Origin: a virus
Direction: 5' to 3' (one strand)
DNA: 64,000 bases
Virus record (IMG/VR): IMGVR_UViG_3300047548_000772
Location: 1-64,000 of that record
Each line of letters begins with the position of its first letter. Position 1 is the stretch's first letter. Below, piece after piece: positions 9,683-61,211 of the stretch. The notes beneath the pieces are model-generated. The model was not told where the DNA came from and did no database searches. It saw nothing but the letters and a program-made list of their open reading frames with translations. The position numbers were made by a program, and so were the translations under genes.

Positions 9683-9711
9683 TTGACTAGAAATTGTGTT
9701 TTTTGTATAAT
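9683..9711 (+). promoter_or_regulatory. sigma70-type promoter
   Basis: TTGACT-N17-TATAAT. Confidence 0.85.
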
Positions 9712-10400: not shown

Positions 10401-10566
10401 GGAATTCAAATGTACAAACTTCTCTTTGATGGCATGGTATTTCCGTTTAAAACATTGGACGAGGCTTTGCTGGCTAGTAAAAACCTTGTGGTTGAATGGA
10501 CTATACTTGATCCTCAAGGAGAAGTTGCATTTGATTGGGTAGATCGCGTAGGCCCCTAAGGAGAGT

Positions 10567-10755
10567 ATGATGCGTGAAGATCTAATGGAAGCAGTATTGC
10601 AAGGCACAGCAAGTCCTAGATTGCTTACTGATGCTGAACTCGACGAACTTGTTCGTCGCTGCGACAAAATTGTATTTGATGCTGCTATAGAAACAGCATA
10701 CCAACATAACCCCGCACAAACATTCAGCGGAACCACTAACCCTACTATACACTAA
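10567..10755 (+). CDS. small hypothetical protein
   Basis: AAGGAG RBS. Confidence 0.65.
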   Translation: MMREDLMEAVLQGTASPRLLTDAELDELVRRCDKIVFDAAIETAYQHNPAQTFSGTTNPTIH

Positions 10756-10762: not shown

Positions 10763-10927
10763 GTGAAAACAGCACACGCTTGGCAATACAACGGTGTAGC
10801 CACTTGGACAGAACTGATTGAATGGTGTGGTGCTAACTTGTCGCCTCGCTGGCATACCAACTGCCGCGACACTTTTTACTTTTGCTGTGATGAGGACTAC
10901 GTTATATTTTTGTTGAGGTGGGCATGA
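10763..10927 (+). CDS. LRW-family short protein (not in ORF track)
   Basis: GTG start; IEWCGAN...FCCDEDYVIFLLRWA*. Confidence 0.75.
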   Translation: MKTAHAWQYNGVATWTELIEWCGANLSPRWHTNCRDTFYFCCDEDYVIFLLRWA

Positions 10928-11202
10928 AATTAATTAAACTAGACCGCAGACATCACGGCCACCGCACTTGGACTCATGCCTTGCAATTTACTCAGCAAGA
11001 ATGCCATGTTCGTCACCGCAAATTTGCTCCGTATGTACAAGCCTTTAGTGAAATATACGGTGACGAACACTGGTACGATCATGCTGCAAATTGGCGTGAG
11101 TCTCTTAAATGGAATGAACACTGGCGTTACGATCGGCATCGCCGCAGAATCTACTTTAAAGATCCCAGCATACTAACCTTTGTGGAGTTGAAAATATCAT
11201 GA
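10924..11202 (+). CDS. LRW-family short protein, divergent
   Basis: IYFKDPSILTFVELKIS*. Confidence 0.65.
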   Translation: MKLIKLDRRHHGHRTWTHALQFTQQECHVRHRKFAPYVQAFSEIYGDEHWYDHAANWRESLKWNEHWRYDRHRRRIYFKDPSILTFVELKIS

Positions 11203-11408
11203 CTATGAAATTACCTTGTGGTGGTGTTGCTTACTTTGATGAGGGTAGCGGAATTGGTTATCGTTGTGAGCATTGCATGGCTGTAGTAGGCAGCGTGGGT
11301 ATGCCCCGGTCATGTAAATCAGAAAAGGACAAGTATGACAAAGTGTTGCCTGCGTTAGGCAGCCGAGTTAAATGGAACTACGAAAAAGGATGTGAGGAAA
11401 CTGCATGA
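11199..11408 (+). CDS. small Cys-containing hypothetical protein
   Basis: CEHC plus two further Cys; ATGA coupled. Confidence 0.65.
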   Translation: MTMKLPCGGVAYFDEGSGIGYRCEHCMAVVGSVGMPRSCKSEKDKYDKVLPALGSRVKWNYEKGCEETA

Positions 11409-11590
11409 GATTCCGCTATAAGCTCGACCCCGAGTCGGATCCGCGAAACAATTTCTACAACATGTTTACATGGTGTCAGCAACGGTTTGGGCAGTCCGGG
11501 TTAAAGAATAGTGCATGGACCTATAAGTACGGAACTTGGCACTTTCGTCGGCGTGAAGATTACGTAATGTTTATCCTGAGGTGGATATGA
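11405..11590 (+). CDS. LRW-family short protein
   Basis: TWCQQRFG...HFRRREDYVMFILRWI*. Confidence 0.8.
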   Translation: MRFRYKLDPESDPRNNFYNMFTWCQQRFGQSGLKNSAWTYKYGTWHFRRREDYVMFILRWI

Positions 11591-11883
11591 AAATCGTAAA
11601 ATTAAATGGTAACTTTAACATTTACAAGACCCACGGGTTCGAAGTAGGTGTAAAGTTCGATCTTTGGGATACCAAAGCACGTAACTTTGAAGCAGTTGTA
11701 GCAGATTGCTTGGGCAAACGAGCCTGGGGCTGGAAATACTATCCTAGTCTGGAGGTCAGAGAAAACTGGGCCGGTGAGTTTGGCAAACGTGCTAGTGGAC
11801 AAACCACACCGTATTGGATTTACTTTCGCCGGGAAAGTATGCTAACATTAGTATTATTATCAATCAATCATCAAAAGGACTAA
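11587..11883 (+). CDS. LRW-family protein, divergent
   Basis: IYFRRESMLTLVLLS. Confidence 0.6.
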   Translation: MKIVKLNGNFNIYKTHGFEVGVKFDLWDTKARNFEAVVADCLGKRAWGWKYYPSLEVRENWAGEFGKRASGQTTPYWIYFRRESMLTLVLLSINHQKD

Positions 11884-11885
11884 AA

Positions 11886-12398
11886 ATGGTTACTATTAAA
11901 GACTTTATGGAATCGGTTAACTATCGCATTACCGAAGGCAGCGAATACTGCTGGTCGTGCTTTGGGCCATATGCTTACAGACTAGATTCTTGGAATGGCG
12001 AAACCGATGGCTATACTATTAGCCTACTATTTGATACACAATCGCAAGAAGTATATCAAGCCGAAGCATGGGATTATGCTCGTGAGCGTTACTATCGTTG
12101 GCAAAATCCTGCATACATTGATGCGCATGTTGCTGAAGCCAAGTCACGTGACATCGACCCCGACGAAGCCTGCGATGGTGCTAAGTTTATTGACTTGGAA
12201 GTCGCTGCTGACTTCTTAGACAAAGCACTTTCAATTGTACAAGGTGTAGACTACGATACTCGCGTACAAATTGAAGTTGAACTCGACGATGACGTTATCA
12301 ATGCTGCTATGCGTATTGCACACGAGCGTGATATTACTTTTAATCAACTTGTAGAACAAATTATTCAGGCTAAAATCAACGAATTAAAAGGTGTGTAG
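11886..12398 (+). CDS. hypothetical protein, possible C-terminal ribbon-helix-helix
   Basis: IEVELDDDVINAAMRIAHERDITFNQLVEQII. Confidence 0.65.
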   Translation: MVTIKDFMESVNYRITEGSEYCWSCFGPYAYRLDSWNGETDGYTISLLFDTQSQEVYQAEAWDYARERYYRWQNPAYIDAHVAEAKSRDIDPDEACDGAKFIDLEVAADFLDKALSIVQGVDYDTRVQIEVELDDDVINAAMRIAHERDITFNQLVEQIIQAKINELKGV

Positions 12399-12622
12399 TG
12401 TCATCTATCACCCAACAAGGTCCATTTTTCACTCCGTGGAAGCAGTGGTTTGCCTGGCGTCCTGTGCGCACACTTGGTGGTGAACTAGCGTGGATGCGTA
12501 AGATTTATCGTCGTGCTTACGAAAAGGACTATGTTACACACGACGACTGGACACGTTATCAATATGGTAGTTTGCTTGATGTAATCGCAAACCCAGATCG
12601 CCCACAGGCTTGGTGGTCATGA
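12398..12622 (+). CDS. hypothetical protein
   Basis: WKQWFAWRPV motif; coupled. Confidence 0.7.
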   Translation: MSSITQQGPFFTPWKQWFAWRPVRTLGGELAWMRKIYRRAYEKDYVTHDDWTRYQYGSLLDVIANPDRPQAWWS

Positions 12623-12936
12623 GCAAAACTGTACAAATACTGCAAGCAGCAAACCAAGCAGGCAAATCTTTTGGGTTCACTGCTGAACAACAGCAATATC
12701 TTAAAGATGCACTTGAACTGGCTACAATCAAAATGAATCAAAAATTCGAACTCATTGATCAGGGTCCTGTAGACGATGCTCCTTGGTACACAGTTAAAAT
12801 TCGCGACAAAGAAATTTGGTTTTGGCTTACACAGCAAGAAGGTCGGTGGCATCACTATATTTGTGAGCAAACCCGCATTCCACTAGTCGACATGGACGAG
12901 CCCACTTATCTAGCCTTGGTAATGCGTTGGTCATGA
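12619..12936 (+). CDS. LRW-family protein
   Basis: VDMDEPTYLALVMRWS*. Confidence 0.75.
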   Translation: MSKTVQILQAANQAGKSFGFTAEQQQYLKDALELATIKMNQKFELIDQGPVDDAPWYTVKIRDKEIWFWLTQQEGRWHHYICEQTRIPLVDMDEPTYLALVMRWS

Positions 12937-13124
12937 TTCAGAAAACTGCCCTAGCCATAGATCGGCCAACATTTTATATCGATCTGAAACCTGCCTACAG
13001 TATTACTGCGGATATGCAAAAATGGCTAGAGGAAGAAGAAGGTGCAGGCTATTCTTTGGGTGGATGGGGCATTTACTTCTACGATAGCAAAGATGCTACA
13101 ATGTTTGCGTTGAAATGGTTATGA
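12933..13124 (+). CDS. LRW-family short protein
   Basis: YFYDSKDATMFALKWL*. Confidence 0.82.
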   Translation: MIQKTALAIDRPTFYIDLKPAYSITADMQKWLEEEEGAGYSLGGWGIYFYDSKDATMFALKWL

Positions 13125-13390
13125 CAATTACTTATAAACGTCCTTTTAGTGATCGCAGTACTCGTGTGCCTATACATAAAGTTTACTACGGCGAGCCCGT
13201 GGTAGAAGCAGATCCATTCCTTGGAATTCCATTTAAACTCTACCCATCGCACGATGCAGCAGCGATCGAATGGTGTCAAGAAAACTGCAGGGCCGCTTGG
13301 TACAGAAGTCCCGGTTATTGTGATCAATGCTTTATTGAATTTGAAGACGATCAAGATGCTATGATGTTTTCTTTAAGGTGGAGCGAATGA
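13121..13390 (+). CDS. LRW-family short protein
   Basis: EWCQENC...EFEDDQDAMMFSLRWSE*. Confidence 0.82.
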   Translation: MTITYKRPFSDRSTRVPIHKVYYGEPVVEADPFLGIPFKLYPSHDAAAIEWCQENCRAAWYRSPGYCDQCFIEFEDDQDAMMFSLRWSE

Positions 13391-13596
13391 CTGGTTATAA
13401 CGAAGCGTTTCCTTATATTGTTGCTGATGACTCATGGCTTAGTTATGTAGATGTACAATGGCAAGATATGTGTAAATGGTGCGATACTAACCTGCCCGGT
13501 GAGTGGGAGTACTTCAATGGCGAGTATAGATTTGCTACAGAACGTGCTAAAATGTTATTTTTGTTGAGATGGAGCAATGGACAACTATCTTATTAA
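13387..13596 (+). CDS. LRW-family short protein
   Basis: KWCDTNL...RFATERAKMLFLLRWS. Confidence 0.8.
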   Translation: MTGYNEAFPYIVADDSWLSYVDVQWQDMCKWCDTNLPGEWEYFNGEYRFATERAKMLFLLRWSNGQLSY

Positions 13597-13819
13597 CTGT
13601 GTAAATGCAGTAGGCTGGACGAAATTCAGCCGGCATTGTGCTGACATTTACTCTAACAGCAAGATTGTATCAATTAATTCTGTTTACGATTATCAACTTG
13701 CACTACAGTTTGGCTTTGAATATCCCAGAGTGCGTGTTAAGAGTCCACGCACATATCCGCACTACCTACGGTTTCGTACAGAACAAGAATATCTAGCGTT
13801 TGCCTTGAGGTGGTCATGA
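13577..13819 (+). CDS. LRW-family short protein
   Basis: RFRTEQEYLAFALRWS*. Confidence 0.8.
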   Translation: MDNYLINCVNAVGWTKFSRHCADIYSNSKIVSINSVYDYQLALQFGFEYPRVRVKSPRTYPHYLRFRTEQEYLAFALRWS

Positions 13820-14031
13820 TCAAAGTTATTCTAAACGATTCAAAGATTCCCTACGCGAATGTCTATGCGCATTTTTCATGGATTGCTGGTTGGGCCAAAG
13901 CCAACTGCCCAAGTTATGTCACATACGAAACCATAGACGTTAGCGACTTTTCTGTGACCAATGATGTGTTAGCAGAATATACATTTGTTGATGAACGTGA
14001 TGCAACCTTGTTTAGGTTGAAATGGTCATGA
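13816..14031 (+). CDS. LRW-family short protein
   Basis: TFVDERDATLFRLKWS*. Confidence 0.82.
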   Translation: MIKVILNDSKIPYANVYAHFSWIAGWAKANCPSYVTYETIDVSDFSVTNDVLAEYTFVDERDATLFRLKWS

Positions 14032-14261
14032 TTACATTTAACGTTAGCGAGAACACAGCCTTTGATCGCATGTACCATCATTACTGGTTTGACTCTAAGT
14101 TCATTGAGCAGACTCCGCATTTGACTACGTCAGTGGTTGAAACCTGGATGGACTATACATTGGAAAACTATGGAATTCGCCCGCTGGGTCCAACGGGCAA
14201 TGGCATTTGGGAAGTTGTTGATGAACAAAAATACGCACTGATGCTACTAAAATGGACATAA
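14028..14261 (+). CDS. LRW-family short protein
   Basis: EVVDEQKYALMLLKWT*. Confidence 0.78.
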   Translation: MITFNVSENTAFDRMYHHYWFDSKFIEQTPHLTTSVVETWMDYTLENYGIRPLGPTGNGIWEVVDEQKYALMLLKWT

Positions 14262-14593
14262 AGATTCTATCACATAGAAAACCCAGCAATCGTTCAATGA
14301 TGATGTTTACCAACATCATTAGGTTCCAACCTCGGACCGACGACGATAAGTCTGATTACCCTTATGAGAATTCATTGAATCGTATTTGTTCGTGGATCTC
14401 ACTTAACTTCAAAGAAAACTTTGTTGTTTTAGAAAAAACCAGTAGTCGCATTGCTGGTGGTTGGGCTGACAATAAAAAAGGGTGGCAAGTTCAAAGGTAC
14501 GAAGTAGATCGACGAGAACACTCAACAACCGCAGTTTATGAACTACGCTGCATGGGGCCAGATGCTACACTATTCATGCTAAAGTGGGGCTAA
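14252..14593 (+). CDS. LRW-family protein
   Basis: GPDATLFMLKWG*; ATG formed by upstream K-W codons. Confidence 0.78.
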   Translation: MDIKILSHRKPSNRSMMMFTNIIRFQPRTDDDKSDYPYENSLNRICSWISLNFKENFVVLEKTSSRIAGGWADNKKGWQVQRYEVDRREHSTTAVYELRCMGPDATLFMLKWG

Positions 14594-15012
14594 TGAGTTT
14601 CAACGGAGCTGCATTTTTAAAGGATAAAGTAAGCATGGCCAAGTGGGAAATACATCGCCGATTCGGGACTGTTAAAGCCTTGTGGTGGAAGTTTATGCCC
14701 GGGGTAAAAATCACTGTTAAATGGCCCGCTGGGCTTGTAGAGATCGACGACTCTATGCCACAATGGGATTGGACTATTGGACCAGCGAAGTACGTAGTTG
14801 CCAGTGCCGACCCGAACGATCACTATAGGCCTTGGTTAGAGCAGAATGTAGGTCGTCAAGGTTGGGATTGGGACTGGCGATTAGGTCCAATCACTGGTGC
14901 ACAGGGTAGCGCAAACGGCCCGACTTATCTAACTGGAGACTATTTGGAGATCAAGTTTCGCAAAGCCAAGGCAGAATATGCTACAATGTTTAAACTAATA
15001 TGGCCCGACTAA
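14593..15012 (+). CDS. LRW-family protein
   Basis: WLEQNVG...EYATMFKLIWPD*. Confidence 0.75.
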   Translation: MSFNGAAFLKDKVSMAKWEIHRRFGTVKALWWKFMPGVKITVKWPAGLVEIDDSMPQWDWTIGPAKYVVASADPNDHYRPWLEQNVGRQGWDWDWRLGPITGAQGSANGPTYLTGDYLEIKFRKAKAEYATMFKLIWPD

Positions 15013-15013
15013 C

Positions 15014-15289
15014 ATGAATATACCTTTAGATGTTTTAGAATCCATGGAACAACAAGCAGCACAAAGTTTGCGTGAAAGCATTGACTTTGAAGTGTTGGCC
15101 GATGTGTTAGTTACTGGATGTGGATGGACCGATGTGGTCATTGATTTGATGTTTGCTGGCACAGATCGAGAAAAAGAAATAACACAATGGGCCGAGGATA
15201 ATTGTGCAGGACTACATAAACATCACTACGGACGTTGGGTATTTGAACTTGCCGCTGACGCTGTGCTGTTTAAACTAAAATGGGCTTAA
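15014..15289 (+). CDS. LRW-family protein
   Basis: VFELAADAVLFKLKWA*. Confidence 0.82.
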   Translation: MNIPLDVLESMEQQAAQSLRESIDFEVLADVLVTGCGWTDVVIDLMFAGTDREKEITQWAEDNCAGLHKHHYGRWVFELAADAVLFKLKWA

Positions 15290-15290
15290 T

Positions 15291-15590
15291 ATGCTGGTAT
15301 ATCGCAACGGACTACTACAATTACCTGATCACGAATATTCAGTATTTGATGGCGAAATTAGATTTAATCATGCCCTACAGTTAGGCGATCGCATACACGT
15401 TCAAGACGGCGTGTATCAACAAACGTTTTCCAGCGATGGACGAACTAATGTTTTTGTCGTTGACACCGAGGTTCAAGAAAACCTTGCTATTACCACGTTG
15501 TTAGAAAACTGTCTCAAGTACAAAGATAATCCTATGGTCATCGATGCACTAGAACGATTACAAGTAGCATTGTCATTGGTGCGAGAATGA
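15291..15590 (+). CDS. hypothetical protein
   Basis: ORF in array lacking the LRW motif. Confidence 0.7.
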   Translation: MLVYRNGLLQLPDHEYSVFDGEIRFNHALQLGDRIHVQDGVYQQTFSSDGRTNVFVVDTEVQENLAITTLLENCLKYKDNPMVIDALERLQVALSLVRE

Positions 15591-15799
15591 TCGAAATTAA
15601 GTTTGGCCGGGAGAGGTTTCACGAAGCCCAAGAAATGAGTCTGTGGCTCATTGATCATTATGGTCGTGGTATGTGGTATCGATATGCAATGGTCGAAAAT
15701 AACGATTGCCGGTGGGCACAGGAAAGCGCCTTTGGTATTACTTGGTTTTACTTTCGCAACCAAGAAGATGCTACAATGTTTGCATTGAAGTGGCAATGA
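15587..15799 (+). CDS. LRW-family short protein
   Basis: YFRNQEDATMFALKWQ*. Confidence 0.82.
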   Translation: MIEIKFGRERFHEAQEMSLWLIDHYGRGMWYRYAMVENNDCRWAQESAFGITWFYFRNQEDATMFALKWQ

Positions 15800-16194
15800 G
15801 CATTTGGGCAAAGATCAAAGATCGTTGGCTTACTTGGCGCACAGGCAAGGATGCTGAACAACGTGCATGGGACGCATGGTGCGATGTTAATGTGTGTCGC
15901 CGCGCCCATACAGTAGAAAATTACTACTACAAGTTTAAGCATATTATCGAAGTAGACCCAGCCAAAGTATTTGATACCACATGTCCATTTGGATGGACCT
16001 ATATCAAAGACTTTCAGCAATTTGCATTTCCAAACCGAGAACTAGGCAACAATACAATGTGCGAATGGTTTCGTTGTGTCAAGGACGACTACGATGGACA
16101 ATGGCATATCAATGAAATCGGCGGCTATGACCACCTTTTTGCTGCTACAAATTCCGACGCAGATGCCATAGTTATAGCGTTAAAATACACTTGA
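15796..16194 (+). CDS. LRW-family-like protein
   Basis: TNSDADAIVIALKYT*. Confidence 0.68.
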   Translation: MSIWAKIKDRWLTWRTGKDAEQRAWDAWCDVNVCRRAHTVENYYYKFKHIIEVDPAKVFDTTCPFGWTYIKDFQQFAFPNRELGNNTMCEWFRCVKDDYDGQWHINEIGGYDHLFAATNSDADAIVIALKYT

Positions 16195-16219
16195 CCAGAA
16201 ATACCTATTTTGCTATAAT
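16191..16219 (+). promoter_or_regulatory. sigma70-type promoter
   Basis: TTGACC-N17-TATAAT with extended -10 TG; -35 overlaps upstream TGA stop. Confidence 0.88.
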
Positions 16220-16225
16220 TATACT

Positions 16226-16453
16226 ATGGCTAAAATAGTACCCGTAAAAGAGTTAGAACCTGCATTTAGTAATGCCATGCGAGCGTTGATCGCCGAATGT
16301 GGTCCAGATATTATGACCATGGCTAATACAATGAACGCTTGGCAGAAACACTACGGGTCGTATATTTTACACGATGAAAATTTTGGTTGGGAAGTTGTAG
16401 CATTTAAATCAGAGCAAGATCAAGTTATGTTTATGTTAAAGTGGGGTAGTTAA
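16226..16453 (+). CDS. LRW-family short protein
   Basis: AFKSEQDQVMFMLKWGS*. Confidence 0.8.
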   Translation: MAKIVPVKELEPAFSNAMRALIAECGPDIMTMANTMNAWQKHYGSYILHDENFGWEVVAFKSEQDQVMFMLKWGS

Positions 16454-16843
16454 GTGAGCAAGGAAAAGAAACTACTGTTTAGCGTCACTGCTAAAGACTG
16501 CGAATGGTCCTATACCAAGGGCACAGGTGCAGGCGGGCAAAAGCGCAACAAAACCAGCTCGGCTGTTCACTGTATGCATCGCCCCAGTGGTGCTCGTGGC
16601 TATAGCGAAGCAAGCCGGAGCCAAGCAGACAACAAGCGTGATGCGTTTGTTAAGATGGCTAATACTGTGGAGTTTCGTCGCTGGAACCAACTCGAAGCTA
16701 TGAAGAAGATGGGGCAACTTGAAGAACTCGAGCGTAAGCTAGAGGAAGATATGAAGCCCTGGAACCTACGTTACGAAACTAAAGTAGATGGTGTTTGGAC
16801 AGAAACAGCACCCGAGGATATGAGCCGTGATGAAAGCAATTAA
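16454..16843 (+). CDS. class I release-factor-domain protein (GGQ peptidyl-tRNA hydrolase)
   Basis: GTGAGGQKRNKTSSAV...RSQADNK. Confidence 0.88.
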   Translation: MSKEKKLLFSVTAKDCEWSYTKGTGAGGQKRNKTSSAVHCMHRPSGARGYSEASRSQADNKRDAFVKMANTVEFRRWNQLEAMKKMGQLEELERKLEEDMKPWNLRYETKVDGVWTETAPEDMSRDESN

Positions 16844-17135
16844 AATTCGACCAAACGATCAACGAGCATTTACTCGCAAGGGTCGACTGACTCCGCAGTA
16901 TAACTTACCTTACCACGCTCGTGGACGGAGCACGTTTTACGATTCGTTGCCGGTTAATCAACGCACCTTGATTAAGATCTTCGGTTACCTACACGGTTAC
17001 GCAGGTCATGGTACTCGGGTTATGCGACAGCGTTGGCGACCAGCAGAACATCGATTCCAAATGCGCCATATGCCAGTTACCTCCCGAAGTACCAGTCAAT
17101 TTGTTAATGAATACACCGCACACAGATGGATGTAA
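16827..17135 (+). CDS. basic hypothetical protein
   Basis: Arg-rich ORF between coupled genes. Confidence 0.55.
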   Translation: MMKAIKIRPNDQRAFTRKGRLTPQYNLPYHARGRSTFYDSLPVNQRTLIKIFGYLHGYAGHGTRVMRQRWRPAEHRFQMRHMPVTSRSTSQFVNEYTAHRWM

Positions 17136-17136
17136 A

Positions 17137-17643
17137 ATGGACGCACTAAAAGATCCTAATTTGTCCGCAGACGAAATCAAACTGCTTAATGGATTACAAG
17201 GCATTCAACGCATTGTAATTAACTCGTGTCACGGCGGATTTGGTTTAAGTGAGGCCGCCGTTCGACGTTATTTAGAACTTCGAGGCATTGAAGTTTGGGT
17301 CGAACCACGCACAGAAACATATATGTCGTTGGGACCATTGTATTGGCTTGTGCCGCCGGGGCCGCACAGAGCAACATATGATCCAAGTCCCGAAGCATGG
17401 TCACGCATGACCATGGCCGAACGTCAAGCCAACAACAAAATACTAGACTCGCAGTTATTTTATGCACGTGATATTGCTCGCGACGATCCTTTGTTGGTGC
17501 GTGTCGTTGAAGAACTTGGTTCACAGTCTTATGGACGCCACGCTGAACTCAAAGTAGTAGATGTTCCGTCTGACGTTGAATGGACTATTGAAGAATACGA
17601 TGGCTCGGAGTGGGTGGCGGAGGTACACAGGACTTGGCAATGA
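17137..17643 (+). CDS. hypothetical phage protein
   Basis: IVINSCHGGFGLS...EYDGSEWV; start uncertain (17107 or 17137). Confidence 0.75.
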   Translation: MDALKDPNLSADEIKLLNGLQGIQRIVINSCHGGFGLSEAAVRRYLELRGIEVWVEPRTETYMSLGPLYWLVPPGPHRATYDPSPEAWSRMTMAERQANNKILDSQLFYARDIARDDPLLVRVVEELGSQSYGRHAELKVVDVPSDVEWTIEEYDGSEWVAEVHRTWQ

Positions 17644-17855
17644 TGGGAGAATTTTTCAAAATGGGCAATTATAGTTTTTGCAGCGACGAACGTGATATAC
17701 GCACTAGCAACAATTGGCTAGAAATTCGCAGTTGGTGCGCTGACAATCTCATTGCCGCAGAACAAATTATGACTGGACCGGGGATGCCTTTTAACGTTTG
17801 GCGGGTCAAAGACGAACATCAACGCACATGGTTTAAACTGCGATGGGAAATTTAG
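17640..17855 (+). CDS. LRW-family short protein
   Basis: SWCADN...RVKDEHQRTWFKLRWEI*. Confidence 0.78.
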   Translation: MMGEFFKMGNYSFCSDERDIRTSNNWLEIRSWCADNLIAAEQIMTGPGMPFNVWRVKDEHQRTWFKLRWEI

Positions 17856-18031
17856 ATTACCTTATTGAAAGTAGATACCGCTGTATCATTCCCACAGGGT
17901 TTGATGCTGCCGAAACACTAGGCAATTGGGCACATGGGTATCCGGAAATGTACACGGTTTACACAACGGGCACAATATCGTATAATAACGAACAAGCACT
18001 CAGTTGGTTTATTCTAAAATGGCCACAATAA
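17843..18031 (+). CDS. LRW-family short protein
   Basis: SYNNEQALSWFILKWPQ*. Confidence 0.75.
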   Translation: MGNLDYLIESRYRCIIPTGFDAAETLGNWAHGYPEMYTVYTTGTISYNNEQALSWFILKWPQ

Positions 18032-18249
18032 GCAATTACTATTCTGAAAATCTCAGTAATCATACTCGAGTAAAATTCCCAGAGTATAATCCAAGAAAGG
18101 TCTTGGAGTTTTTGCGTGAACACTTTGGCGATAACAATATCCATCAATCGGTTGAACAACGTCGTTGGGTTACTGTTGGGTATAGTGAATACATTTACTT
18201 TCGTGACGAGCGTGATGCTATGTGGTTTAAACTACGGTGGGACAAATGA
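18019..18249 (+). CDS. LRW-family short protein
   Basis: YFRDERDAMWFKLRWDK*. Confidence 0.82.
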   Translation: MATISNYYSENLSNHTRVKFPEYNPRKVLEFLREHFGDNNIHQSVEQRRWVTVGYSEYIYFRDERDAMWFKLRWDK

Positions 18250-18470
18250 TTGGCATTACTGTCCCGGAAAACATTGATATGTTTCGGCGTGCTTGGACCA
18301 CTGTGGCTGTGCCAAAGTATTGCCCAAACAGAGATACTAGTGTTGCAGAAAGCCAGCGCATATGGCTTGAGGAATTTGGGTGTAGAATGATCTTTGGCAA
18401 AACTGGCTTTTTAACAGCAGAGTTTGACAACGAAGCAGACTATACTGCATTTATATTGAGGTGGTCCTAG
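18246..18470 (+). CDS. LRW-family short protein
   Basis: EFDNEADYTAFILRWS*. Confidence 0.82.
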   Translation: MIGITVPENIDMFRRAWTTVAVPKYCPNRDTSVAESQRIWLEEFGCRMIFGKTGFLTAEFDNEADYTAFILRWS

Positions 18471-18727
18471 TGAGCGGAAACAGTCGACAACGTAGACGTA
18501 GTGCCCGTCACTGGCGGCATGTCTATCACATAGAAAATACCAGTCCGCTGGGTATCAAGGCTTGGGCCATTCGTCAGTGGTGTGAACAACAGTATGGTCA
18601 AAAGAATTTTGCTCGTACTTGGGCAATTCAAACACAGTCCGAAGAAAACTGGCCTACACAATTTTTTGTAGCATTTAACAAGGACAAAGATGCGGCTTGG
18701 TTCGTATCTAAATGGTTATCACAATGA
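18470..18727 (+). CDS. LRW-family short protein
   Basis: QWCEQQYG...AFNKDKDAAWFVSKWL. Confidence 0.75.
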   Translation: MSGNSRQRRRSARHWRHVYHIENTSPLGIKAWAIRQWCEQQYGQKNFARTWAIQTQSEENWPTQFFVAFNKDKDAAWFVSKWLSQ

Positions 18728-18981
18728 AACATCGCTCGCGCACAGTATTTAAAAGCACTAACTTTATTATCGACAAGCGCACAAATAGTAAGGGCAGAGT
18801 TTATTACGAGCTTAGTCTAAACTCCTACGGTAGCATTGCATGGGATCCCGAGCGGTTTGATCTAGTTCGTAATATCGTTGACCCCACACGCAACAGATCC
18901 GGGCACTTTGGCAGATCTTGGAAATATCCTAACCGTGCTGCTGCTGAACGAGACTTGATGTTATTGGAACTAATGTTATGA
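18724..18981 (+). CDS. hypothetical protein
   Basis: ATGA coupled in array. Confidence 0.65.
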   Translation: MKHRSRTVFKSTNFIIDKRTNSKGRVYYELSLNSYGSIAWDPERFDLVRNIVDPTRNRSGHFGRSWKYPNRAAAERDLMLLELML

Positions 18982-19217
18982 ACAACACGGTTAAGTTTAC
19001 TGCTATCCCTATCGATAAATGGTCATTGCAGGATCGTAAGGGGGCCATCACGTGGTTATTGGGATTATATGGGTTTGGTAACATCAAAACTTGGTACCTG
19101 GATACTCAACCAGCAGGGTGCGAAGATTTAATCATGCGCGACGATATCTATTTTATGTTTGCAGCAGCATTTGGAGAAGGTTATGGCACATCCAGAAAAT
19201 ACAATGAGAGCACTTAA
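18978..19217 (+). CDS. hypothetical protein, possibly a very divergent LRW-family member
   Basis: WLLGLYG...IMRDDIYFMFAAAF. Confidence 0.55.
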   Translation: MNNTVKFTAIPIDKWSLQDRKGAITWLLGLYGFGNIKTWYLDTQPAGCEDLIMRDDIYFMFAAAFGEGYGTSRKYNEST

Positions 19218-19392
19218 AGATCAGCCACTGTTTGTTGATCGCTGGCAATGTCGCTGGGGACTACACCGTTGGACTCGCTGGTCAGATGGTAAAAAGGATG
19301 CTAGTTCACTGCACTTTACACAGCACCGCACTTGTGTAGACTGTGGCCGTCAAGAAATAAAAAAACTACTAGGTGATTCGAGGCCATTTTAA
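19204..19392 (+). CDS. small Cys/His-containing protein
   Basis: CRWGLHRW...CVDCG. Confidence 0.6.
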   Translation: MRALKDQPLFVDRWQCRWGLHRWTRWSDGKKDASSLHFTQHRTCVDCGRQEIKKLLGDSRPF

Positions 19393-19393
19393 C

Positions 19394-19660
19394 ATGGGCT
19401 TACAAATTCCCCGTTATCCCGAGCCTATAGAGATGCGCACAGGCGAAGACTTTTTAAAGTCTTTTAGTTATTGGGCGCAACTTATTGGCGGACGTTTTAG
19501 CGATCGCACTGAACGCAATGAACTGGCCGGGCAGTGGTGTATGGAATACTTTGGCGTGCCCGATACCACTTGGGAAGGCGGCGTTTGGAACTTTAGCAAC
19601 GGTAAGTTTTATTTTAAAAACGAGTCAGACCGTAGCATGTTTGTGTTGAGGTGGTCGTGA
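19394..19660 (+). CDS. LRW-family short protein
   Basis: QWCMEYFG...YFKNESDRSMFVLRWS*. Confidence 0.82.
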   Translation: MGLQIPRYPEPIEMRTGEDFLKSFSYWAQLIGGRFSDRTERNELAGQWCMEYFGVPDTTWEGGVWNFSNGKFYFKNESDRSMFVLRWS

Positions 19661-19926
19661 TAATCGAAACAGATTCCGATCTATACTTTAACATACGCGG
19701 AAAATGGTTACGCGGAAACCCGCTACGTTGGCGCACTGAACTAACAGAGCAACGTGCCGCAGCATTTACCCAGTTTGTCAAAGATAACGGCGGTCAAATT
19801 AACGAGGACCGCATTGATAAAAATAAAATGTACGGCAGCGATTCTCTAGGAATAATCCCAGGCATTAGCACCATCGTGTTTAATGACGAAAAATTATACA
19901 CTATGTTTGTGTTGAGGTATGCATGA
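19657..19926 (+). CDS. LRW-family short protein
   Basis: VFNDEKLYTMFVLRYA*. Confidence 0.8.
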   Translation: MIIETDSDLYFNIRGKWLRGNPLRWRTELTEQRAAAFTQFVKDNGGQINEDRIDKNKMYGSDSLGIIPGISTIVFNDEKLYTMFVLRYA

Positions 19927-20132
19927 TAGACTTAGAATATAAGCGATTAGAAAAAGGTGGGGCCAACGGTGTTGACCTACAAGCACTAGGACTGTGGCTT
20001 GATGAAAATATGCCTAATCCTCCGTTGCCCGAAGAACAGCGTTGGACTATTGGTCGTAGTGCTGATGGACGTATTGGTATTAGGTTTGCCAATGATCACG
20101 ATGCAACGTTATTTTCATTGAGGTGGGGATGA
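19923..20132 (+). CDS. LRW-family short protein
   Basis: RFANDHDATLFSLRWG*. Confidence 0.82.
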   Translation: MIDLEYKRLEKGGANGVDLQALGLWLDENMPNPPLPEEQRWTIGRSADGRIGIRFANDHDATLFSLRWG

Positions 20133-20329
20133 TAGTTGATTTAAACAACTTACCTTATCGACAAGCCAGAGAACTAATCTTATGGTGCGTGGCCAACGAC
20201 ATTGACAAAGAACGTGCCGATAAACTATACTTTGCTTGGTACGAGCCTGCAGGTTCAAAGAAAGAATATACTTGGGAACTAGACATTCCCGAAGAATATC
20301 TAACTTACTTTATGTTGAAGTGGCAATGA
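20129..20329 (+). CDS. LRW-family short protein
   Basis: DIPEEYLTYFMLKWQ*. Confidence 0.78.
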   Translation: MIVDLNNLPYRQARELILWCVANDIDKERADKLYFAWYEPAGSKKEYTWELDIPEEYLTYFMLKWQ

Positions 20330-20580
20330 AACCTCCGTTTACAGCCGTTCGCAAAGTTTATCACGTTCCTACCAACGACTTCAACGACCTTGTCTGGGGG
20401 TTGTGGCACGAGGTTAAACGCATTTCTCATGGTAAAGTTGAAATATTAGGTGGCCCGGGCATGGACGAACTTGATTGGTTGTTCGAAAGTCAAGACGATG
20501 CCATATGGTTTATGTTAAAGTATGGTGGTAAGGATGTTACTAACGAATTTAGGGCATGGCAAAACAATGGGCTGGACTAA
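20326..20580 (+). CDS. LRW-family short protein
   Basis: LFESQDDAIWFMLKYG. Confidence 0.78.
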   Translation: MKPPFTAVRKVYHVPTNDFNDLVWGLWHEVKRISHGKVEILGGPGMDELDWLFESQDDAIWFMLKYGGKDVTNEFRAWQNNGLD

Positions 20581-20851
20581 CATACAATACGAAACAATTA
20601 ACTACGATCCAAACTTAAAGCCGACTCACAAAAGCATTTGGGACGGTGAGCAGTTTGTTACTCGCACAATTTATCACGTGCCTATTGTAATAGGCGATGC
20701 AAGCGAAAAAGCAAAGTGGCTAAACGAAACATTTGGACACGGACGTACCGGGCGTAACAGTTACGATGAAAATGGTTATTGGGCAGTTGGTCCTACCAGG
20801 ATCAGCATGGAAGAAAAAGTCTACATGATGTATCGACTGCGATGGGGCTAA
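20567..20851 (+). CDS. LRW-family short protein
   Basis: WLNETFG...SMEEKVYMMYRLRWG*. Confidence 0.78.
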   Translation: MGWTNIQYETINYDPNLKPTHKSIWDGEQFVTRTIYHVPIVIGDASEKAKWLNETFGHGRTGRNSYDENGYWAVGPTRISMEEKVYMMYRLRWG

Positions 20852-21117
20852 TTGAACTTCGTGAATGGCAATGGGAAATGATCCTTGCCCGGCTCAAAGA
20901 AGAATATGCTAGTACACCTAGTATGTTTTTAATGCGCGGCAAAATGCGCGACTGTTTGGGTTTTGTTCATCGCCATCATACACAATGGGTCAGCAAAGAA
21001 ACTCGAGGCTACTATCGCGAGTGTGTATGTATTGACTTTTATAACGCTGCTGCTGAATCAATGTTTCGACTAAAATATGCAGACATTCTTAACATGGAGA
21101 ACAAACACGGCTTATAG
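20842..21117 (+). CDS. LRW-family short protein
   Basis: DFYNAAAESMFRLKYA. Confidence 0.72.
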   Translation: MGLIELREWQWEMILARLKEEYASTPSMFLMRGKMRDCLGFVHRHHTQWVSKETRGYYRECVCIDFYNAAAESMFRLKYADILNMENKHGL

Positions 21118-21241: not shown

Positions 21242-22459
21242 ATGAAGAAGAGTCTAGTCGCTCTATCAATCGCAGCAATGTCAACTGCTGCTCTCGCTCA
21301 AAGCAACGTTACCATTTATGGTGTTGCAGACGTGTCAGCACAAGGCACCAACGTAACACAAGGTGTTGGCGCACCAGGCGGTACAGAAGGTGGCGCATTT
21401 AATCTAAAGTCAAACGACTCATTGCTTGGCTTCAAGGGCACCGAAGCTCTTGGCAACGGTAACAAGGCATTGTTCCAATTGGAATCGTATGTTAACGTTA
21501 CTGGCAACAACCAAGGTCCATCATATGGCAACGGCAACAACCTATTTGGTGGTATGCGTGATTCATTTGTTGGCTTCGGCAGCAAGTACGGTACAATCCA
21601 AGGTGGTTACTTCTCAACTCCATACCGTGCTAGCCTACTAACATTTGATGTATTCCCAGGCGACCGTAGTGACTCGGTACTAATCAACACTATGGGCAAG
21701 CAACGCATCGGTTATCGTGGTCTTACTGATCAAGCCAGCACTGGCTACGTCCAAGCCGACAACGCAGTTCGTGCAACTGGTCTACAATATGCTATGCCAA
21801 CTCTTTATGGCATCAATGGTTCGATCGCTTACACCGGTTCAAATAACAACGGCACAAGCAACCAAACCAATAACACAGTTGGTCTGAACACACAAACAAG
21901 CCTAGCAGGTCAAAACGCACTATCAATGAACTTGGGCTGGACTGGCTACGGTGTTAACATTGCTGGTGCTTTTCAACAAACCAAGCTAAACTCAACTGTC
22001 AATGCTGACAACGGCTTCACATCAACAACCCCATTTAGCGGTTACACCAGCTACATGGTCGGTGCACAGTACACAGGCCTACCGGGTCTAAAGGCAGCAG
22101 TTGCCTACAACCGCAACAGCCTTGGTACTAACAACTCATCAGACCTAGGCGCAAGCAAGGGCAGCAACAACCAAATCTACGTTGGTGCAAGCTATCGCTT
22201 TGGTAACAACGAGCCACGTGCTTCTTACATCAGCACCAGCGACACATCAGGCTTTAACGTTGGCCAAGATGGTGGTACACAGTGGAACCTAGGTTGGGCT
22301 TACTATCTAAGCAAGCGCACCAACGTTTACGGCATGGTCACCCAGTACAAGAACAACGCTAACGGCGTATGGGCACCATATCAAACTGGTACTAACCTAA
22401 TGCCAACTGGTGGTCAAATGCTAACCACATACGGTGTTGGTCTACGTACAAACTTCTAA
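21242..22459 (+). CDS. Gram-negative general porin (Betaproteobacteria-type)
   Basis: signal peptide, AQSNVTIYGVADV, GFKGTEALG, YYLSKRTNVY, C-terminal VGLRTNF. Confidence 0.93.
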   Translation: MKKSLVALSIAAMSTAALAQSNVTIYGVADVSAQGTNVTQGVGAPGGTEGGAFNLKSNDSLLGFKGTEALGNGNKALFQLESYVNVTGNNQGPSYGNGNNLFGGMRDSFVGFGSKYGTIQGGYFSTPYRASLLTFDVFPGDRSDSVLINTMGKQRIGYRGLTDQASTGYVQADNAVRATGLQYAMPTLYGINGSIAYTGSNNNGTSNQTNNTVGLNTQTSLAGQNALSMNLGWTGYGVNIAGAFQQTKLNSTVNADNGFTSTTPFSGYTSYMVGAQYTGLPGLKAAVAYNRNSLGTNNSSDLGASKGSNNQIYVGASYRFGNNEPRASYISTSDTSGFNVGQDGGTQWNLGWAYYLSKRTNVYGMVTQYKNNANGVWAPYQTGTNLMPTGGQMLTTYGVGLRTNF

Positions 22460-22469
22460 GGAGAACTAG

Positions 22470-23042
22470 ATGAAGCGATATCTACTAACGCTTCTTCTAG
22501 CAGTGACCACTGCGGCTTTTGCCCAACAAGGGCCGCAGGGTTATCTAACTGACACTAATGGTCAGGTCGTTAGAAGTGGCACAGGACTATGCTGGCACAC
22601 AGGTTATTGGACTCCGGCTAATGCAACTGTTGAAGGTTGCGACGGCTATGCCAAAGCTGCGCCAGCGGGTGCCAAAGTTACACTTCAGGCAGACACCTTG
22701 TTTGATTTTAACAAGGCAACACTAAAGCCCGAAGGTAAGACAGCACTTAATAATGTTATTAAGTCAGCACAAGGTACGAAGGTTGAAATCTTTGCAGTTG
22801 TTGGTTACACCGACCGCATCGGTTCAGACAAGTATAACCTTGCACTAAGTGAAAAGCGGGCTGCGGCTGTTAAGGCTTACTTTGTGAGTCAAGGCGTTCC
22901 AGCAGATGCTATTATCACCCAAGGTCGTGGCAAGGCTAACCCAGTTACAGGCGATTCCTGTAAGGGTCAAGTCAGTAGCAAACTAATTAGTTGCTTACAG
23001 CCAGACCGTCGTGCTGTTGTGGAAATCATCGGCACAAAGTAA
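22470..23042 (+). CDS. OmpA-family peptidoglycan-binding protein
   Basis: signal peptide, ADTLFDFNKA, GYTDRIGSDKYNLALSEKRA, DRRAVVEI. Confidence 0.93.
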   Translation: MKRYLLTLLLAVTTAAFAQQGPQGYLTDTNGQVVRSGTGLCWHTGYWTPANATVEGCDGYAKAAPAGAKVTLQADTLFDFNKATLKPEGKTALNNVIKSAQGTKVEIFAVVGYTDRIGSDKYNLALSEKRAAAVKAYFVSQGVPADAIITQGRGKANPVTGDSCKGQVSSKLISCLQPDRRAVVEIIGTK

Positions 23043-48713: not shown

Positions 48714-48950
48714 ATGATGTTCAACATCCGAGGTGACTATACTTCCGATGAGTTAGTTAACTGGTTAGAAAAACATATTGGTTATCGAACATTTGAGAAG
48801 CACTCATTAATACAAGGTCCCGGATGGTCAATATCACCAGCAAGTCTTCCAATGGAAGGGTTTGTTAGTGGTATCCGTATTCAGCACGAGTGGGTGGTCA
48901 GGATCGACGACGAAAAAACTGCTGTAATGTTTAAACTAAAATGGATGTAA
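48714..48950 (+). CDS. LRW-family short protein
   Basis: WLEKHIG...RIDDEKTAVMFKLKWM*. Confidence 0.8.
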   Translation: MMFNIRGDYTSDELVNWLEKHIGYRTFEKHSLIQGPGWSISPASLPMEGFVSGIRIQHEWVVRIDDEKTAVMFKLKWM

Positions 48951-54376: not shown

Positions 54377-55471
54377 ATGTCAGTTGAACATCGTACAGTT
54401 ACCGCACCAGAAGCCAAGAAGGCAATTCTTAAATGCTTTAATAAGAAGCGTCCTCTGTTCTTGTGGGGTCCTCCAGGTATCGGCAAGTCAGAAGTCGTTG
54501 CTGGTATCACAGAAGAAATGCAAGGTCTAATGATCGACCTTCGTTTGGGCCAAATGGACCCAACCGATATCCGTGGTATCCCGTTTTATAACAAAGAAAA
54601 AGGCGTTATGGATTGGGCTCCCCCAATCGATCTACCAGACGCCGAAACTGCTAGCCAGTACCCAGTTGTTGTTTTGTTCATGGACGAAATGAACTCGGCT
54701 GCACCTGCTGTTCAAGCTGCTGCATATCAACTAGTTCTTAACCGTCGAATCGGTAAGTACATCCTGCCAGACAATGTTGTTATGATCGCTGCTGGTAACC
54801 GCGAGTCAGACAAGGGTGTTACATATCGTATGCCAACTCCGCTGGCAAACCGTTTTGTTCACTTGGAAATGCGTGTTGATTTCCCAGCATGGCAAGAGTG
54901 GGCAGTTGGCAGCGGCATTCACAAGGACGTTGTTGGTTATCTAACCTTTGCCAAGCAGGACCTGTATGACTTTGATGCTAAGTCTGCATCGCGTTCGTTT
55001 GCTACACCGCGTTCGTGGACCTTTGTTAGCGAACTGCTAGAAGATGAAGACATTGACGATCGTACAGCCACTGACTTGATTTCAGGTGCTATCGGCGAAG
55101 GTCTTGCTGTCAAGTTCATGCAACACCGCAAGGTTGCCGGTAAGATGCCTAAGCCCGAAGACATCTTGTCAGGTAAGGTCAAGGATCTTAACATCAAAGA
55201 AGTTTCAGCAATGTACTCGCTGGTTATTTCCATGTGCTACGAACTGCGTGAAGCAGTCGAAAAGAAGATTCCCGAAAAGGACTTCCATGCAATGGCAGAT
55301 AACTTCTTCCGTTACATGATGGATAACTTTGAAACCGAACTGGTTGTTATGGGTGCTCGTATTGCCCTTACCACATACAACCTGCCCTTCCAACCAACGA
55401 AGTTGAAGAACTTCGACGAGTTCCACCAACGTTACGCCAAGTACATTCTACAGGCTACGCAAAACTCGTAA
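54377..55471 (+). CDS. MoxR-like AAA+ ATPase
   Basis: GPPGIGKS, LFMDEMN, IAAGN, LANRF. Confidence 0.93.
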   Translation: MSVEHRTVTAPEAKKAILKCFNKKRPLFLWGPPGIGKSEVVAGITEEMQGLMIDLRLGQMDPTDIRGIPFYNKEKGVMDWAPPIDLPDAETASQYPVVVLFMDEMNSAAPAVQAAAYQLVLNRRIGKYILPDNVVMIAAGNRESDKGVTYRMPTPLANRFVHLEMRVDFPAWQEWAVGSGIHKDVVGYLTFAKQDLYDFDAKSASRSFATPRSWTFVSELLEDEDIDDRTATDLISGAIGEGLAVKFMQHRKVAGKMPKPEDILSGKVKDLNIKEVSAMYSLVISMCYELREAVEKKIPEKDFHAMADNFFRYMMDNFETELVVMGARIALTTYNLPFQPTKLKNFDEFHQRYAKYILQATQNS

Positions 55472-55535: not shown

Positions 55536-55766
55536 ATGTCAACTACAGTTACAAAAACATACGATCCATATGTTTGGAAGAATGTTGCTAAAATACACAG
55601 CGACATGACTAGGGACTTTGGAAAGATTGGTGTCAAATGGTCTTTAAAGATCTTAACTCCAACAAGTTTTACATCGTCAGATCTACCTAGAACTTATGAA
55701 TATACGTTTAATGACCCGCACGATGCTATGATCTACGCTATTAAATACGCAGAACGCCAAGGTTGA
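55536..55766 (+). CDS. LRW-family short protein
   Basis: YTFNDPHDAMIYAIKYA. Confidence 0.7.
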   Translation: MSTTVTKTYDPYVWKNVAKIHSDMTRDFGKIGVKWSLKILTPTSFTSSDLPRTYEYTFNDPHDAMIYAIKYAERQG

Positions 55767-57101: not shown

Positions 57102-57104
57102 TCG

Positions 57105-57263
57105 ATGTTGTACCGAGCAAAGATGCCCGAGGCTTGGGCACGTATGGAGTGGTGCAAAGCTCATTTTGGGCAGCAGAGTTTCAAACGCTGGTGGCGAGAC
57201 CGTGGGTATCTTTGCTTCGTCAACGAAAAGGATTACTTGTTTTACTTGCTGAGGTGGGCATAG
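57105..57263 (+). CDS. LRW-family short protein (not in ORF track)
   Basis: MEWCKAHFG...CFVNEKDYLFYLLRWA*. Confidence 0.78.
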   Translation: MLYRAKMPEAWARMEWCKAHFGQQSFKRWWRDRGYLCFVNEKDYLFYLLRWA

Positions 57264-57487
57264 TGACAGAACTAGAGATTCCAACATCTAACTGGGCTCA
57301 CGTAGATGCGCCACCAAGTTGGTGGGAAAACTTTTTCTATAGTTGCGGCGACTGGCAAGAAGTTCAACGTGTGTTAAAAGAAGATTGGAATGCTGAGGCA
57401 GTTCCTAGTTCTAGACTGGGAGAAGTTGGAACCATTGTATTCGAAAATGAGCAGGATGCTACTATGTTTATGTTGAGGTGGACATGA
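57263..57487 (+). CDS. LRW-family short protein
   Basis: GTG after GAGGTGG; VFENEQDATMFMLRWT*. Confidence 0.8.
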   Translation: MTELEIPTSNWAHVDAPPSWWENFFYSCGDWQEVQRVLKEDWNAEAVPSSRLGEVGTIVFENEQDATMFMLRWT

Positions 57488-57681
57488 TTACTGTGAACAC
57501 TTATCCAAAAATCCAAACGTCCCACGATATGATTCCAGTAAACGAATGGCTAAGACACAACGCTACCAGTAAGTGGAACTGGCGATCCTCAAAAGAGTGG
57601 TATCCTGGGTGGGGTCATCCTATGTTGTTAGATTTTGAGGACGAAAACGATGCAGTATTGTTTGCATTGAGGTGGTTGTGA
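57484..57681 (+). CDS. LRW-family short protein
   Basis: DFEDENDAVLFALRWL*. Confidence 0.82.
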   Translation: MITVNTYPKIQTSHDMIPVNEWLRHNATSKWNWRSSKEWYPGWGHPMLLDFEDENDAVLFALRWL

Positions 57682-60978: not shown

Positions 60979-61211
60979 TGCAACGCATCGTATTTGCTAC
61001 ATTTAATTTAGGCGACGTAGAGGATCCAGAAATCTACGCCGCCTTTCCTATTTACAAATTCAAAGAAACACCCAAAGGCCAGTGGATGATGGAAAACTGC
61101 AAGGATCCGGTTTATGATATTCACATGTGTTACGATACATACGGGTATCGTGTTGTTATCCACGGCAAAGTAGAAGATCAACTTGCTACAGAGTTTTACC
61201 TACGATGGTAG
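60978..61211 (+). CDS. LRW-family-like short protein
   Basis: QWMMENC...EDQLATEFYLRW*. Confidence 0.7.
   Translation: MQRIVFATFNLGDVEDPEIYAAFPIYKFKETPKGQWMMENCKDPVYDIHMCYDTYGYRVVIHGKVEDQLATEFYLRW

Follow-up and report, generated by a model that had tools for sequence, protein, structure and literature searches.

In the 64,000-bp window analysed here, taken from the start of a single 192,074-bp virus record (IMG/VR record IMGVR_UViG_3300047548_000772), the conserved C-terminal tail of one family of small proteins very probably doubles, judging by its sequence, as a Shine-Dalgarno (SD) signal for the gene that follows, so that SD-assisted translational coupling would be fixed in the tail of a single protein family. 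The phage-like character of the record is seen in its gene packing and in its relatives among IMG/VR contigs, which reach 379 kb. A run of small co-directional open reading frames (ORFs) occupies 10.7-21.1 kb of the window, and the majority of them end in F-x-L-[R/K]-[W/Y] plus 0-2 residues. The sequence pattern, its statistics and its fit to the canonical anti-SD are directly established. An earlier, sequence-only reading of the window had proposed that the conserved codons of this ending act as the initiation signal of the next gene, and codon bias, Leu wobble, spacing, duplex strength and replication in other phages all agree with that proposal. The coupling principle itself is already known. 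New here is a signal that forms part of one family's conserved tail, with an effect that is large, consistent and widespread.

Family members were collected with a C-terminal profile hidden Markov model (HMM) of the last 24 residues, built from 29 clear members and scanned against all six frames of the 192-kb contig. The scan returned 34 members, all on the plus strand and all inside the first 62 kb (10763-21117, 48714-48950, 55536-55766, 57102-57947 and 60960-61211), a wider distribution than the sequence-only reading had covered. Gene starts were deduced from ORF geometry alone. Most members fall into two arrays:
10763-21117, plus strand: main array, ~27 recognisable family genes of 54-142 amino acids (aa), from the ORF list, HMM scan and alignment
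57102-57947, plus strand: second small array of four members, all with AGG, directly 3' of a VWA-like gene
The main array also holds degenerate members and a few unrelated genes, and nearly all of its genes are joined through overlapping or abutting stop and start codons.

The Arg of the L/M-R-W/Y motif is present in 18 members and is encoded by AGG in 12, CGA in three, and AGA, CGT and CGG in one each; in the remaining members this position holds Lys (15; AAA 10, AAG 5) or Ile (one, ATA). This recount reproduces exactly the 12 of 18 given in the sequence-only reading. Its suggested comparison with genome-wide Arg usage yields a strong excess: across 128 long ORFs of the 192-kb contig, 2.1% of Arg codons are AGG (P = 1.2e-16). 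Away from the motif, the small genes themselves have AGG at 8.4% of their Arg codons, and the excess at the motif is again clear (P = 1.4e-9). All ten copies of GAGGTGG on the two strands of the 64-kb window lie at the motif, against a shuffled expectation of 3.4 copies. In 11 of the 12 AGG members the third base of the preceding Leu codon is G, compared with a background of 21% (P = 3e-7). Among the other conserved residues, F, D and A codons deviate slightly (P = 0.02-0.04) and E codons are normal, and synonymous conservation spans only about 7-9 nucleotides (nt). Only the G-AGG-TGG bases are thus constrained, not the whole motif, a pattern that speaks for selection on an SD and not for gene conversion.

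The 12 AGG junctions of the window are:
10913-10927, plus strand: TTG AGG TGG GCA TGA (L-R-W-A-stop), next ATG at 10924
11576-11590, plus strand: CTG AGG TGG ATA TGA, next ATG at 11587
13373-13390, plus strand: TTA AGG TGG AGC GAA TGA, next ATG at 13387
13805-13819, plus strand: TTG AGG TGG TCA TGA, next ATG at 13816
18456-18472, plus strand: TTG AGG TGG TCC TAG TG, next start GTG at 18461 or GTG at 18470
19646-19660, plus strand: TTG AGG TGG TCG TGA, next start GTG at 19651 or GTG at 19657
19912-19926, plus strand: TTG AGG TAT GCA TGA (L-R-Y), next ATG at 19923
20118-20132, plus strand: TTG AGG TGG GGA TGA, next ATG at 20129
57249-57265, plus strand: CTG AGG TGG GCA TAG TG, next start GTG at 57254 or GTG at 57263
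57473-57487, plus strand: TTG AGG TGG ACA TGA, next ATG at 57484
57667-57681, plus strand: TTG AGG TGG TTG TGA, next start GTG at 57672 or GTG at 57678
57933-57948, plus strand: TTG AGG TGG TCA TAA TG, next ATG at 57946 in a TAATG overlap

Two of the three SD-like strings quoted in the sequence-only reading are placed correctly (13805-13819 and 20118-20132); the third lies at 57473-57487, one base away from the position 57474 given there, and a fourth, TTGAGGTGGGCATGA, is found at 10913-10927. At 13805-13819, GAGGTGGTC complements nine bases of the canonical 16S 3' tail. TCA is the commonest codon after Trp and lengthens the pairing to nine bases.

The position of the signal also fits that of a ribosome-binding site (RBS). 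Every AGG member is followed by a start (ATG in eight, GTG in four) 2-8 nt past the Trp/Tyr codon, most commonly as W-x-stop with xxATGA, and 30 of the 34 window members have a candidate start between -4 and +12 nt of the Trp codon. Because the next start (xxATGA, TAATG or xxGTGA) comes only 2-8 nt past Trp, the RBS must sit in the last three codons of the preceding gene. The genes are co-directional with overlapping or abutting stop and start codons (ATGA, TAATG, TGATG), and GAGGTGG, an anti-SD complement, lies 3-5 nt ahead of the ATG, inside a limit of ~12 nt. Upstream of its long ORFs the phage uses AAGGAG as its own SD, with a GGAG-to-start distance of 5-9 nt (mode 6); the GAGG 5 nt ahead of ATGA-type starts (TGGnn-ATG) sits in the same register as these AAGGAG sites. 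With a canonical 16S tail assumed for the host, the duplex of UUGAGGUGGUC with the tail GAUCACCUCCUUA has a predicted energy of -14.1 kcal/mol and that of the phage SD consensus -9.0 kcal/mol; with other codons at the Arg/Lys position the values are -7.4 (AGA), -6.5 (CGG), -4.1 (AAA/AAG) and -3.5 kcal/mol (CGT).

Where no start follows closely in the window, the signal is missing. Four window members lack a start near their stop (16194, 21117, 48950 and 55766), and all four carry Lys AAA and none AGG, the outcome expected under the sequence-only reading, which had suggested comparing AGG frequency with members that lack a downstream gene; three of them have Tyr instead of Trp. Across the window, G-ending versus other codons are distributed unevenly by coupling (Fisher P = 0.039). 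The junctions with codons other than AGG, and the members that lack an adjacent start, are:
18232-18249, plus strand: CTA CGG TGG GAC AAA TGA, next ATG at 18246
17838-17855, plus strand: CTG CGA TGG, A-TG-G start at 17843 for the next family gene, no SD upstream
20837-20851, plus strand: CTG CGA TGG GGC TAA, ATG at 20842 opening the last array member
61200-61211, plus strand: CTA CGA TGG TAG, ATG at 61205 in frame with the next ORF (61127-61486)
14247-14261, plus strand: CTA AAA TGG ACA TAA, ATG at 14252 opening the next member
18014-18031, plus strand: CTA AAA TGG CCA CAA TAA, ATG at 18019 opening the next member
16180-16219, plus strand: TTA AAA TAC ACT TGA and then a 32-nt gap, no adjacent start
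21070-21117, plus strand: array-terminal member, CTA AAA TAT plus a 12-residue tail, without SD-like codons
48936-48950, plus strand: solitary member, CTA AAA TGG ATG TAA, the next gene having its own AAGGAG in the spacer
55536-55766, plus strand: divergent member ending …AIKYAERQG, with AAA TAC, uncoupled on both sides

The CGG at 18232-18249 is a rare codon (1.9% of Arg) that likewise yields GGTGG. The array-terminal member is separated from a porin gene by a 125-nt gap. The starts that the sequence-only reading placed at cgA-TGg junctions (17843, 20842, 61205) and aaA-TGg junctions (14252, 18019) are all present, and each opens the next ORF. Its remark on CGA is true yet trivial, since CGA-TGG inevitably contains ATG. 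The ATGs at 17843, 20842 and 61205 are plausible as real starts, 17843 being the first start codon in the frame of the next member. Enrichment of CGA or AAA as start-forming codons was considered and rejected, both being close to background in the window (CGA 3/18 versus 13%).

Two further junctions were noted in the array. A gene at 12398-12622 that the family profile misses ends in …QAWWS (GCT TGG TGG TCA TGA) and shares the GGTGGTCATGA junction, ahead of the next member's ATG at 12619. At 14014-14031 a member ends F-R-L-K-W (TTT AGG TTG AAA TGG TCA TGA), and the AGG two codons upstream sits 5 nt before an A-TG-G start at 14022; the SD may here have moved upstream so as to act on the first of two ATGs in the same frame.

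The proposed mechanism is one in which genes run head to tail without spacers, the main array probably forming two polycistronic units. Selection would satisfy the needs of protein and RBS together through codon choice and, in part, residue choice. Arg written as AGG, together with a G-ending Leu codon and TGG, would give GAGGTGG, often as GAGGTGGTC, a strong complement of the 16S tail at normal phage spacing. When the start overlaps the Trp codon, the A of ATG would come from a codon ending in A (AAA, CGA or AGA), and with no following gene the position would relax to Lys AAA. We infer that ribosomes finishing one gene are held at this site and start the next (SD-assisted termination-reinitiation), in which case each family member would supply the start signal for whatever follows.

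Promoter-like sites in the array region number 24 versus 26.6 expected, which is chance level, and terminator-like hairpins number 7 versus 10.8 in shuffled sequence, with no stem-loops at the junctions. The lack of a promoter or terminator excess in the array fits long polycistronic units in which coupling matters. Four promoter matches reach 11 of 12 positions, of which two (17958-17986 and 20202-20231) fall within coding sequence and two lie in or beside intergenic gaps:
9683-9711, plus strand: promoter-like site, TTGACT-17-TATAAT, ahead of the gene run leading into the array, a consensus match only
16191-16219, plus strand: promoter-like site, TTGACC-17-TATAAT, in the 32-nt gap after 16194, the array's sole gap

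The codon bias recurs in other phages. The pattern TTTNNNTTGAGGTGGNNATGA matched at least 115 IMG/VR stretches, and the protein-level profile found at least 322 members in 97 of these. For the family-wide test, members that matched the pattern (seed members) were left out and the rest, all from outside the window, were dereplicated at 90% identity; at least 376 dereplicated members were available in other phage contigs. The bias seen by the sequence-only reading extends to these non-seed members, in which AGG makes up 109 of 176 Arg codons (62%) versus 7.4% in long ORFs of the same loci. AGA is the second commonest codon, mostly as AGA-TGG, whose ATG shares its frame with another at xxATGA. 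Family-wide, the overlaps are xxATGA (185), TAATG (27), xxGTGA (15) and TGATG (7). Loci fetched blind to the motif, through the unrelated RF-1-domain and VWA-like genes described below, give the same result (AGG 12/19 versus 6.2%, P = 1e-10). A separate phage record has its own array, in which TTGAGGTGGTCATGA occurs three times. Arg in place of Lys is associated with coupling (odds ratio 2.5, P = 0.03), and the translational signal thus appears to reach the amino-acid level.

A number of observations weigh against the coupling reading. In other phages AGG is used in 68% of members with a start 0-12 nt after Trp and still in 41% (7/17) of those scored as uncoupled, well over background, although part of this is misclassification, several apparent exceptions running by ATGA into an ORF below the 40-codon cut-off. 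Loci L084 and L144 look like true terminal members and yet carry TTA AGG TGG. Statistically, coupled and uncoupled members differ only at a borderline level (P = 0.057 across the family, P = 0.039 for the window). Many overlapping pairs of this phage lack an SD altogether (the starts 4220, 4693 and 5385 are examples), so an SD is not obligatory for coupling here. The GAGGTGGTC duplex extends right up to the ATG, which makes for short spacing. The assumed canonical 16S tail and the deduction of starts from ORF geometry apply to the reading as a whole.

A related locus, L153, holds the same principle in a gene from outside the family. Its RF-1-like protein is 92% identical to that of the window, and the adjoining 49-aa gene is the counterpart of window 10410-10559. 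In L153 (9960-10010) the 49-aa gene abuts the RF gene via ATGA and ends AGG GTA GGA CCA TGA; in the window (10515-10570) the same R-V-G-P residues are written CGC GTA GGC CCC TAA and are followed by a spacer with its own GGAG. Since the 49-aa gene is not a family member, the principle would be general, and the family would be where it became fixed.

The best-surviving alternative takes the shared 3' string as a recombination substrate, at which family genes are gained, lost and reordered and are still expressed, a recombinase-free analogue of integron cassettes or of the PeSL shuffling of T4-type phages. We regard it as unlikely, although the arrays are plainly fluid. L153 is without the 5.9-kb first half of the array, from the 49-aa gene to the RF gene, and has two members elsewhere. 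In L003 three members are inserted exactly from ATGA to ATGA, where L001 and L002 join the same flanking genes directly, and L080 differs from L039 by one additional 241-bp member, again from ATGA to ATGA. Nearly every window member has its closest relative in another phage, not in its own array, and orthologues often have different genes downstream (7 of 12 pairs at 80-97% identity, 29 of 39 at 60-80%). The slot between the MoxR and VWA genes, described below, holds from 0 to ~5 genes among 80 relatives. Some adjacency is nevertheless kept (window 13390 and 13596 match 2701 and 2970 of L109), and the member at 55536 keeps its position in more than 30 relatives.

Breakpoints were mapped in an all-against-all comparison of the fetched loci, as the sequence-only reading had suggested. 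They do fall on ATGA junctions: of 386 structural-variant breakpoints, 19% are no more than 20 nt away from a motif end versus 1.5% at random, with a sharp peak at zero. Non-family genes, however, likewise break at gene ends. With admittedly crude gene models, breakpoints within 20 nt of a predicted stop amount to 55% outside the arrays versus 6% at random, and to 71% inside versus 15%. A similar gene-stop preference outside the arrays means that the breakpoint test does not single out the motif, and it was rejected as decisive. Mosaicism at gene ends is thus a general trait of these phages, and it may mean no more than that intact genes survive. The synonymous conservation of ~7-9 nt plus ATGA offers microhomology at best: nucleotide identity common to members covers ~9-15 nt and junction overlaps 4-32 nt. 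No recombinase, attC-like repeat or stem-loop was found at the junctions, where overlapping genes leave no room for one.

The arrays thus turn over fast, and this part of the shuffling proposal in the sequence-only reading stands; recombination guided by its shared 3' sequence we hold to be rather improbable. It is similarly doubtful, though worth stating, that the C-terminal tail acts as a standard connector of RBS and ATGA that keeps any following gene translated and also offers microhomology for the expansion, contraction and exchange of arrays between co-infecting phages. If true, the connector would be the translational equivalent, needing no recombinase, of integron attC sites or T4 PeSLs; should it guide recombination, it would account for the remodelling of hyperplastic small-gene regions with expression preserved.

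It is very improbable that AGG was merely inherited or homogenised by recent duplication or 3'-end gene conversion, with an incidental likeness to an SD. The same 15-mer, TTGAGGTGGTCATGA, does occur in unrelated contigs, and AGG is kept in a few members that lack a following gene. Members are, however, 16-41% identical, at which divergence synonymous sites are saturated, and conversion would keep all synonymous sites, whereas the codons for F, D, A and E stay close to genome usage and only G-AGG is extreme. The codon moreover tracks the next start, being AGG for starts after Trp, A-ending for A-TG-G starts and AAA where there is none. Recent tandem duplication as the source of the arrays was rejected, the paralogues being too diverged and the nearest relatives lying in other phages.

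Another nucleic-acid role of the string (a rare-codon pause before termination, RNA processing or DNA binding), unrelated to the start, deserves hardly any credence: AGG is rare here (2%) and the motif-to-stop distance is fixed, but the constrained bases coincide precisely with the anti-SD complement, which the wobble G of Leu and the TC that opens the following codon lengthen, and spacing to the start, beyond the stop alone, is preserved in both ATGA and TAATG forms.

SD-assisted coupling in a protein tail can be set beside several known systems. Intragenic SD motifs ahead of overlapped starts are common across prokaryotes, with a varying contribution to termination-reinitiation (PMC6728339); removal of the SD lowered reinitiation in 4 of 5 Escherichia coli pairs (Huber et al. 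2019, PMC6728339), and termination-reinitiation at overlapping pairs has been reviewed (PMC12548453). The arrays resemble such pairs in their co-directional genes, 4-nt or 1-nt stop/start overlaps, preference for TGA as stop, and an SD inside the last part of the upstream coding sequence, no more than 12 nt ahead of the start. They differ in that the SD of known pairs is idiosyncratic to single pairs, whereas here it lies in conserved C-terminal residues of a family with more than 400 members in ~100 phage contigs, arrays of up to ~30 and an unusually strong predicted duplex of -14 kcal/mol, all read from sequence. The downstream gene also shapes codon and stop-codon use at gene ends (Eyre-Walker 1996, as relayed in PMC8410138; Palleja et al. 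2009, PMC2784483). Here too the synonymous choice in the last codons would be set by the downstream RBS and start, but the bias is extreme, a 2% codon being used at 67%, and extends to Arg over Lys (odds ratio 2.5).

PeSLs of T4-type phages, the closest precedent for shuffling at a repeated regulatory motif in hyperplastic phage regions, are intergenic promoter and terminator units for which recombination and mini-circles have been shown experimentally (PMC2839356; Comeau et al. 2014, PMC4122927). Both systems concern hyperplastic, small, non-essential phage genes with a short regulatory motif repeated at gene borders, and in both, insertions, deletions and replacements that distinguish relatives can begin and end at the motif, although breakpoints at non-family genes of the present phages also peak at gene stops. 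In the present arrays, however, the signal is translational and lies inside coding sequence, with no junction spacer, promoter or stem-loop, and recombination at the signal is doubtful, whereas for PeSLs it has experimental support. Integron arrays share the runs of small, mostly promoterless, varied genes expressed from upstream. The phage arrays have no attC, since their genes overlap by 4 nt or abut, and their members form one protein family where integrons carry unrelated genes, so the resemblance is one of outcome only. No integrase was seen among the flanking ORFs examined, and no integrase search of the contig was made. A literature search for the nucleotide string returned primers only.

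The arrays offer an unusually clean natural case of a short sequence read two ways, as a structural protein tail and as the RBS and start region of the gene after it. Codons (a 2% codon at 62-67%) and residues (Arg over Lys) both show a measurable effect, which is replicated over hundreds of diverged genes. For annotation, it supplies a rule for deciding where many tiny ORFs of uncultured large phages begin, together with a caution: the conservation of a 'protein motif' can in part have translational causes.

The products of the small genes belong to a genuine but uncharacterised family of phage proteins, for which a beta-beta-alpha-beta-beta-alpha fold is predicted. The full-length alignment has a core of W-[CL]-x-x-N, a second Trp and a beta strand, followed by E-x-D-A-x-x-F-x-L-[RK]-W. 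An AlphaFold2 model made from the family alignment has a mean pLDDT of 82.5 and shows this order of elements, with the motif as the end of the last helix. Window paralogues are 16-41% identical pairwise, and most are undetected by one another in BLASTP. Pfam and PHROGs gave zero matches for the 10 members searched, a profile search of 5.8 billion proteins gave just 12 matches, none named, and the atlas neighbours of the family are all viral hypothetical proteins. The best Foldseek match in the PDB (E = 0.38, a half-domain of I-DmoI) is at chance level and was not taken as a lead. Among 50,697 cultured-phage records there was no match by megablast (with the array) or tblastn (with one member). 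A related-locus search with one member as query found distant relatives only; P0007 and P0010 are closer relatives, 74-79% identical to one family member.

Three degenerate-looking members within the array (10918-11202, 11581-11883 and 18712-18981) have lost the Trp and the SD-like codons and end …FVELKIS, …LTLVLLSINHQKD and …LMLLELML. A conserved relative of the family (L003:15413-15616, L002:13301-13504, L017:6243-6471) ends …F-x-L/I-W-K-K, with no basic residue before the Trp; found at the same position in several phages, it may represent an older, fixed branch.

One further member, that at 55536, is flanked by two genes of other families:
54377-55471: MoxR-like AAA gene
55821-57101: VWA-like DUF2201 gene
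Among 80 relatives (L213-L292) the gap between the two genes is 11-17 nt, with a TAATG overlap, in distant ones and reaches 2.8 kb in close ones. Where filled, it holds 1-5 small family-like genes, many ending …LKYQR or …LKYPVDQ with an AGATGA/CGATGA junction. The sequence-only reading had taken the presence of the 55536 member between these genes as a sign of mobility. The slot is indeed variable (11 nt to 2.8 kb), but more than 30 relatives have an orthologue (…FGLKYQR) in the same position, which makes the member itself a long-standing resident and no newcomer.

Within the main array lies the gene that served as the anchor for fetching related loci:
16454-16843, plus strand: RF-1-domain (ArfB-like) gene, its GTG start abutting the stop of the preceding member
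The junction before it reads AAG TGG GGT AGT TAA GTG. This mid-array gene is ArfB/peptidyl-tRNA-hydrolase-like, with GGQ, and is 51-92% identical in more than 80 phage and metagenome contigs (L001-L022, L153-L212). A phage ribosome-rescue or release factor beside dozens of coupled tiny genes may be no coincidence. Directly 3' of the array, at 21242-23042, come a Porin_4 gene, whose 405-aa product has a signal peptide, and an OmpA-like gene; the likeness of this porin to those of betaproteobacteria may be a clue to the host.

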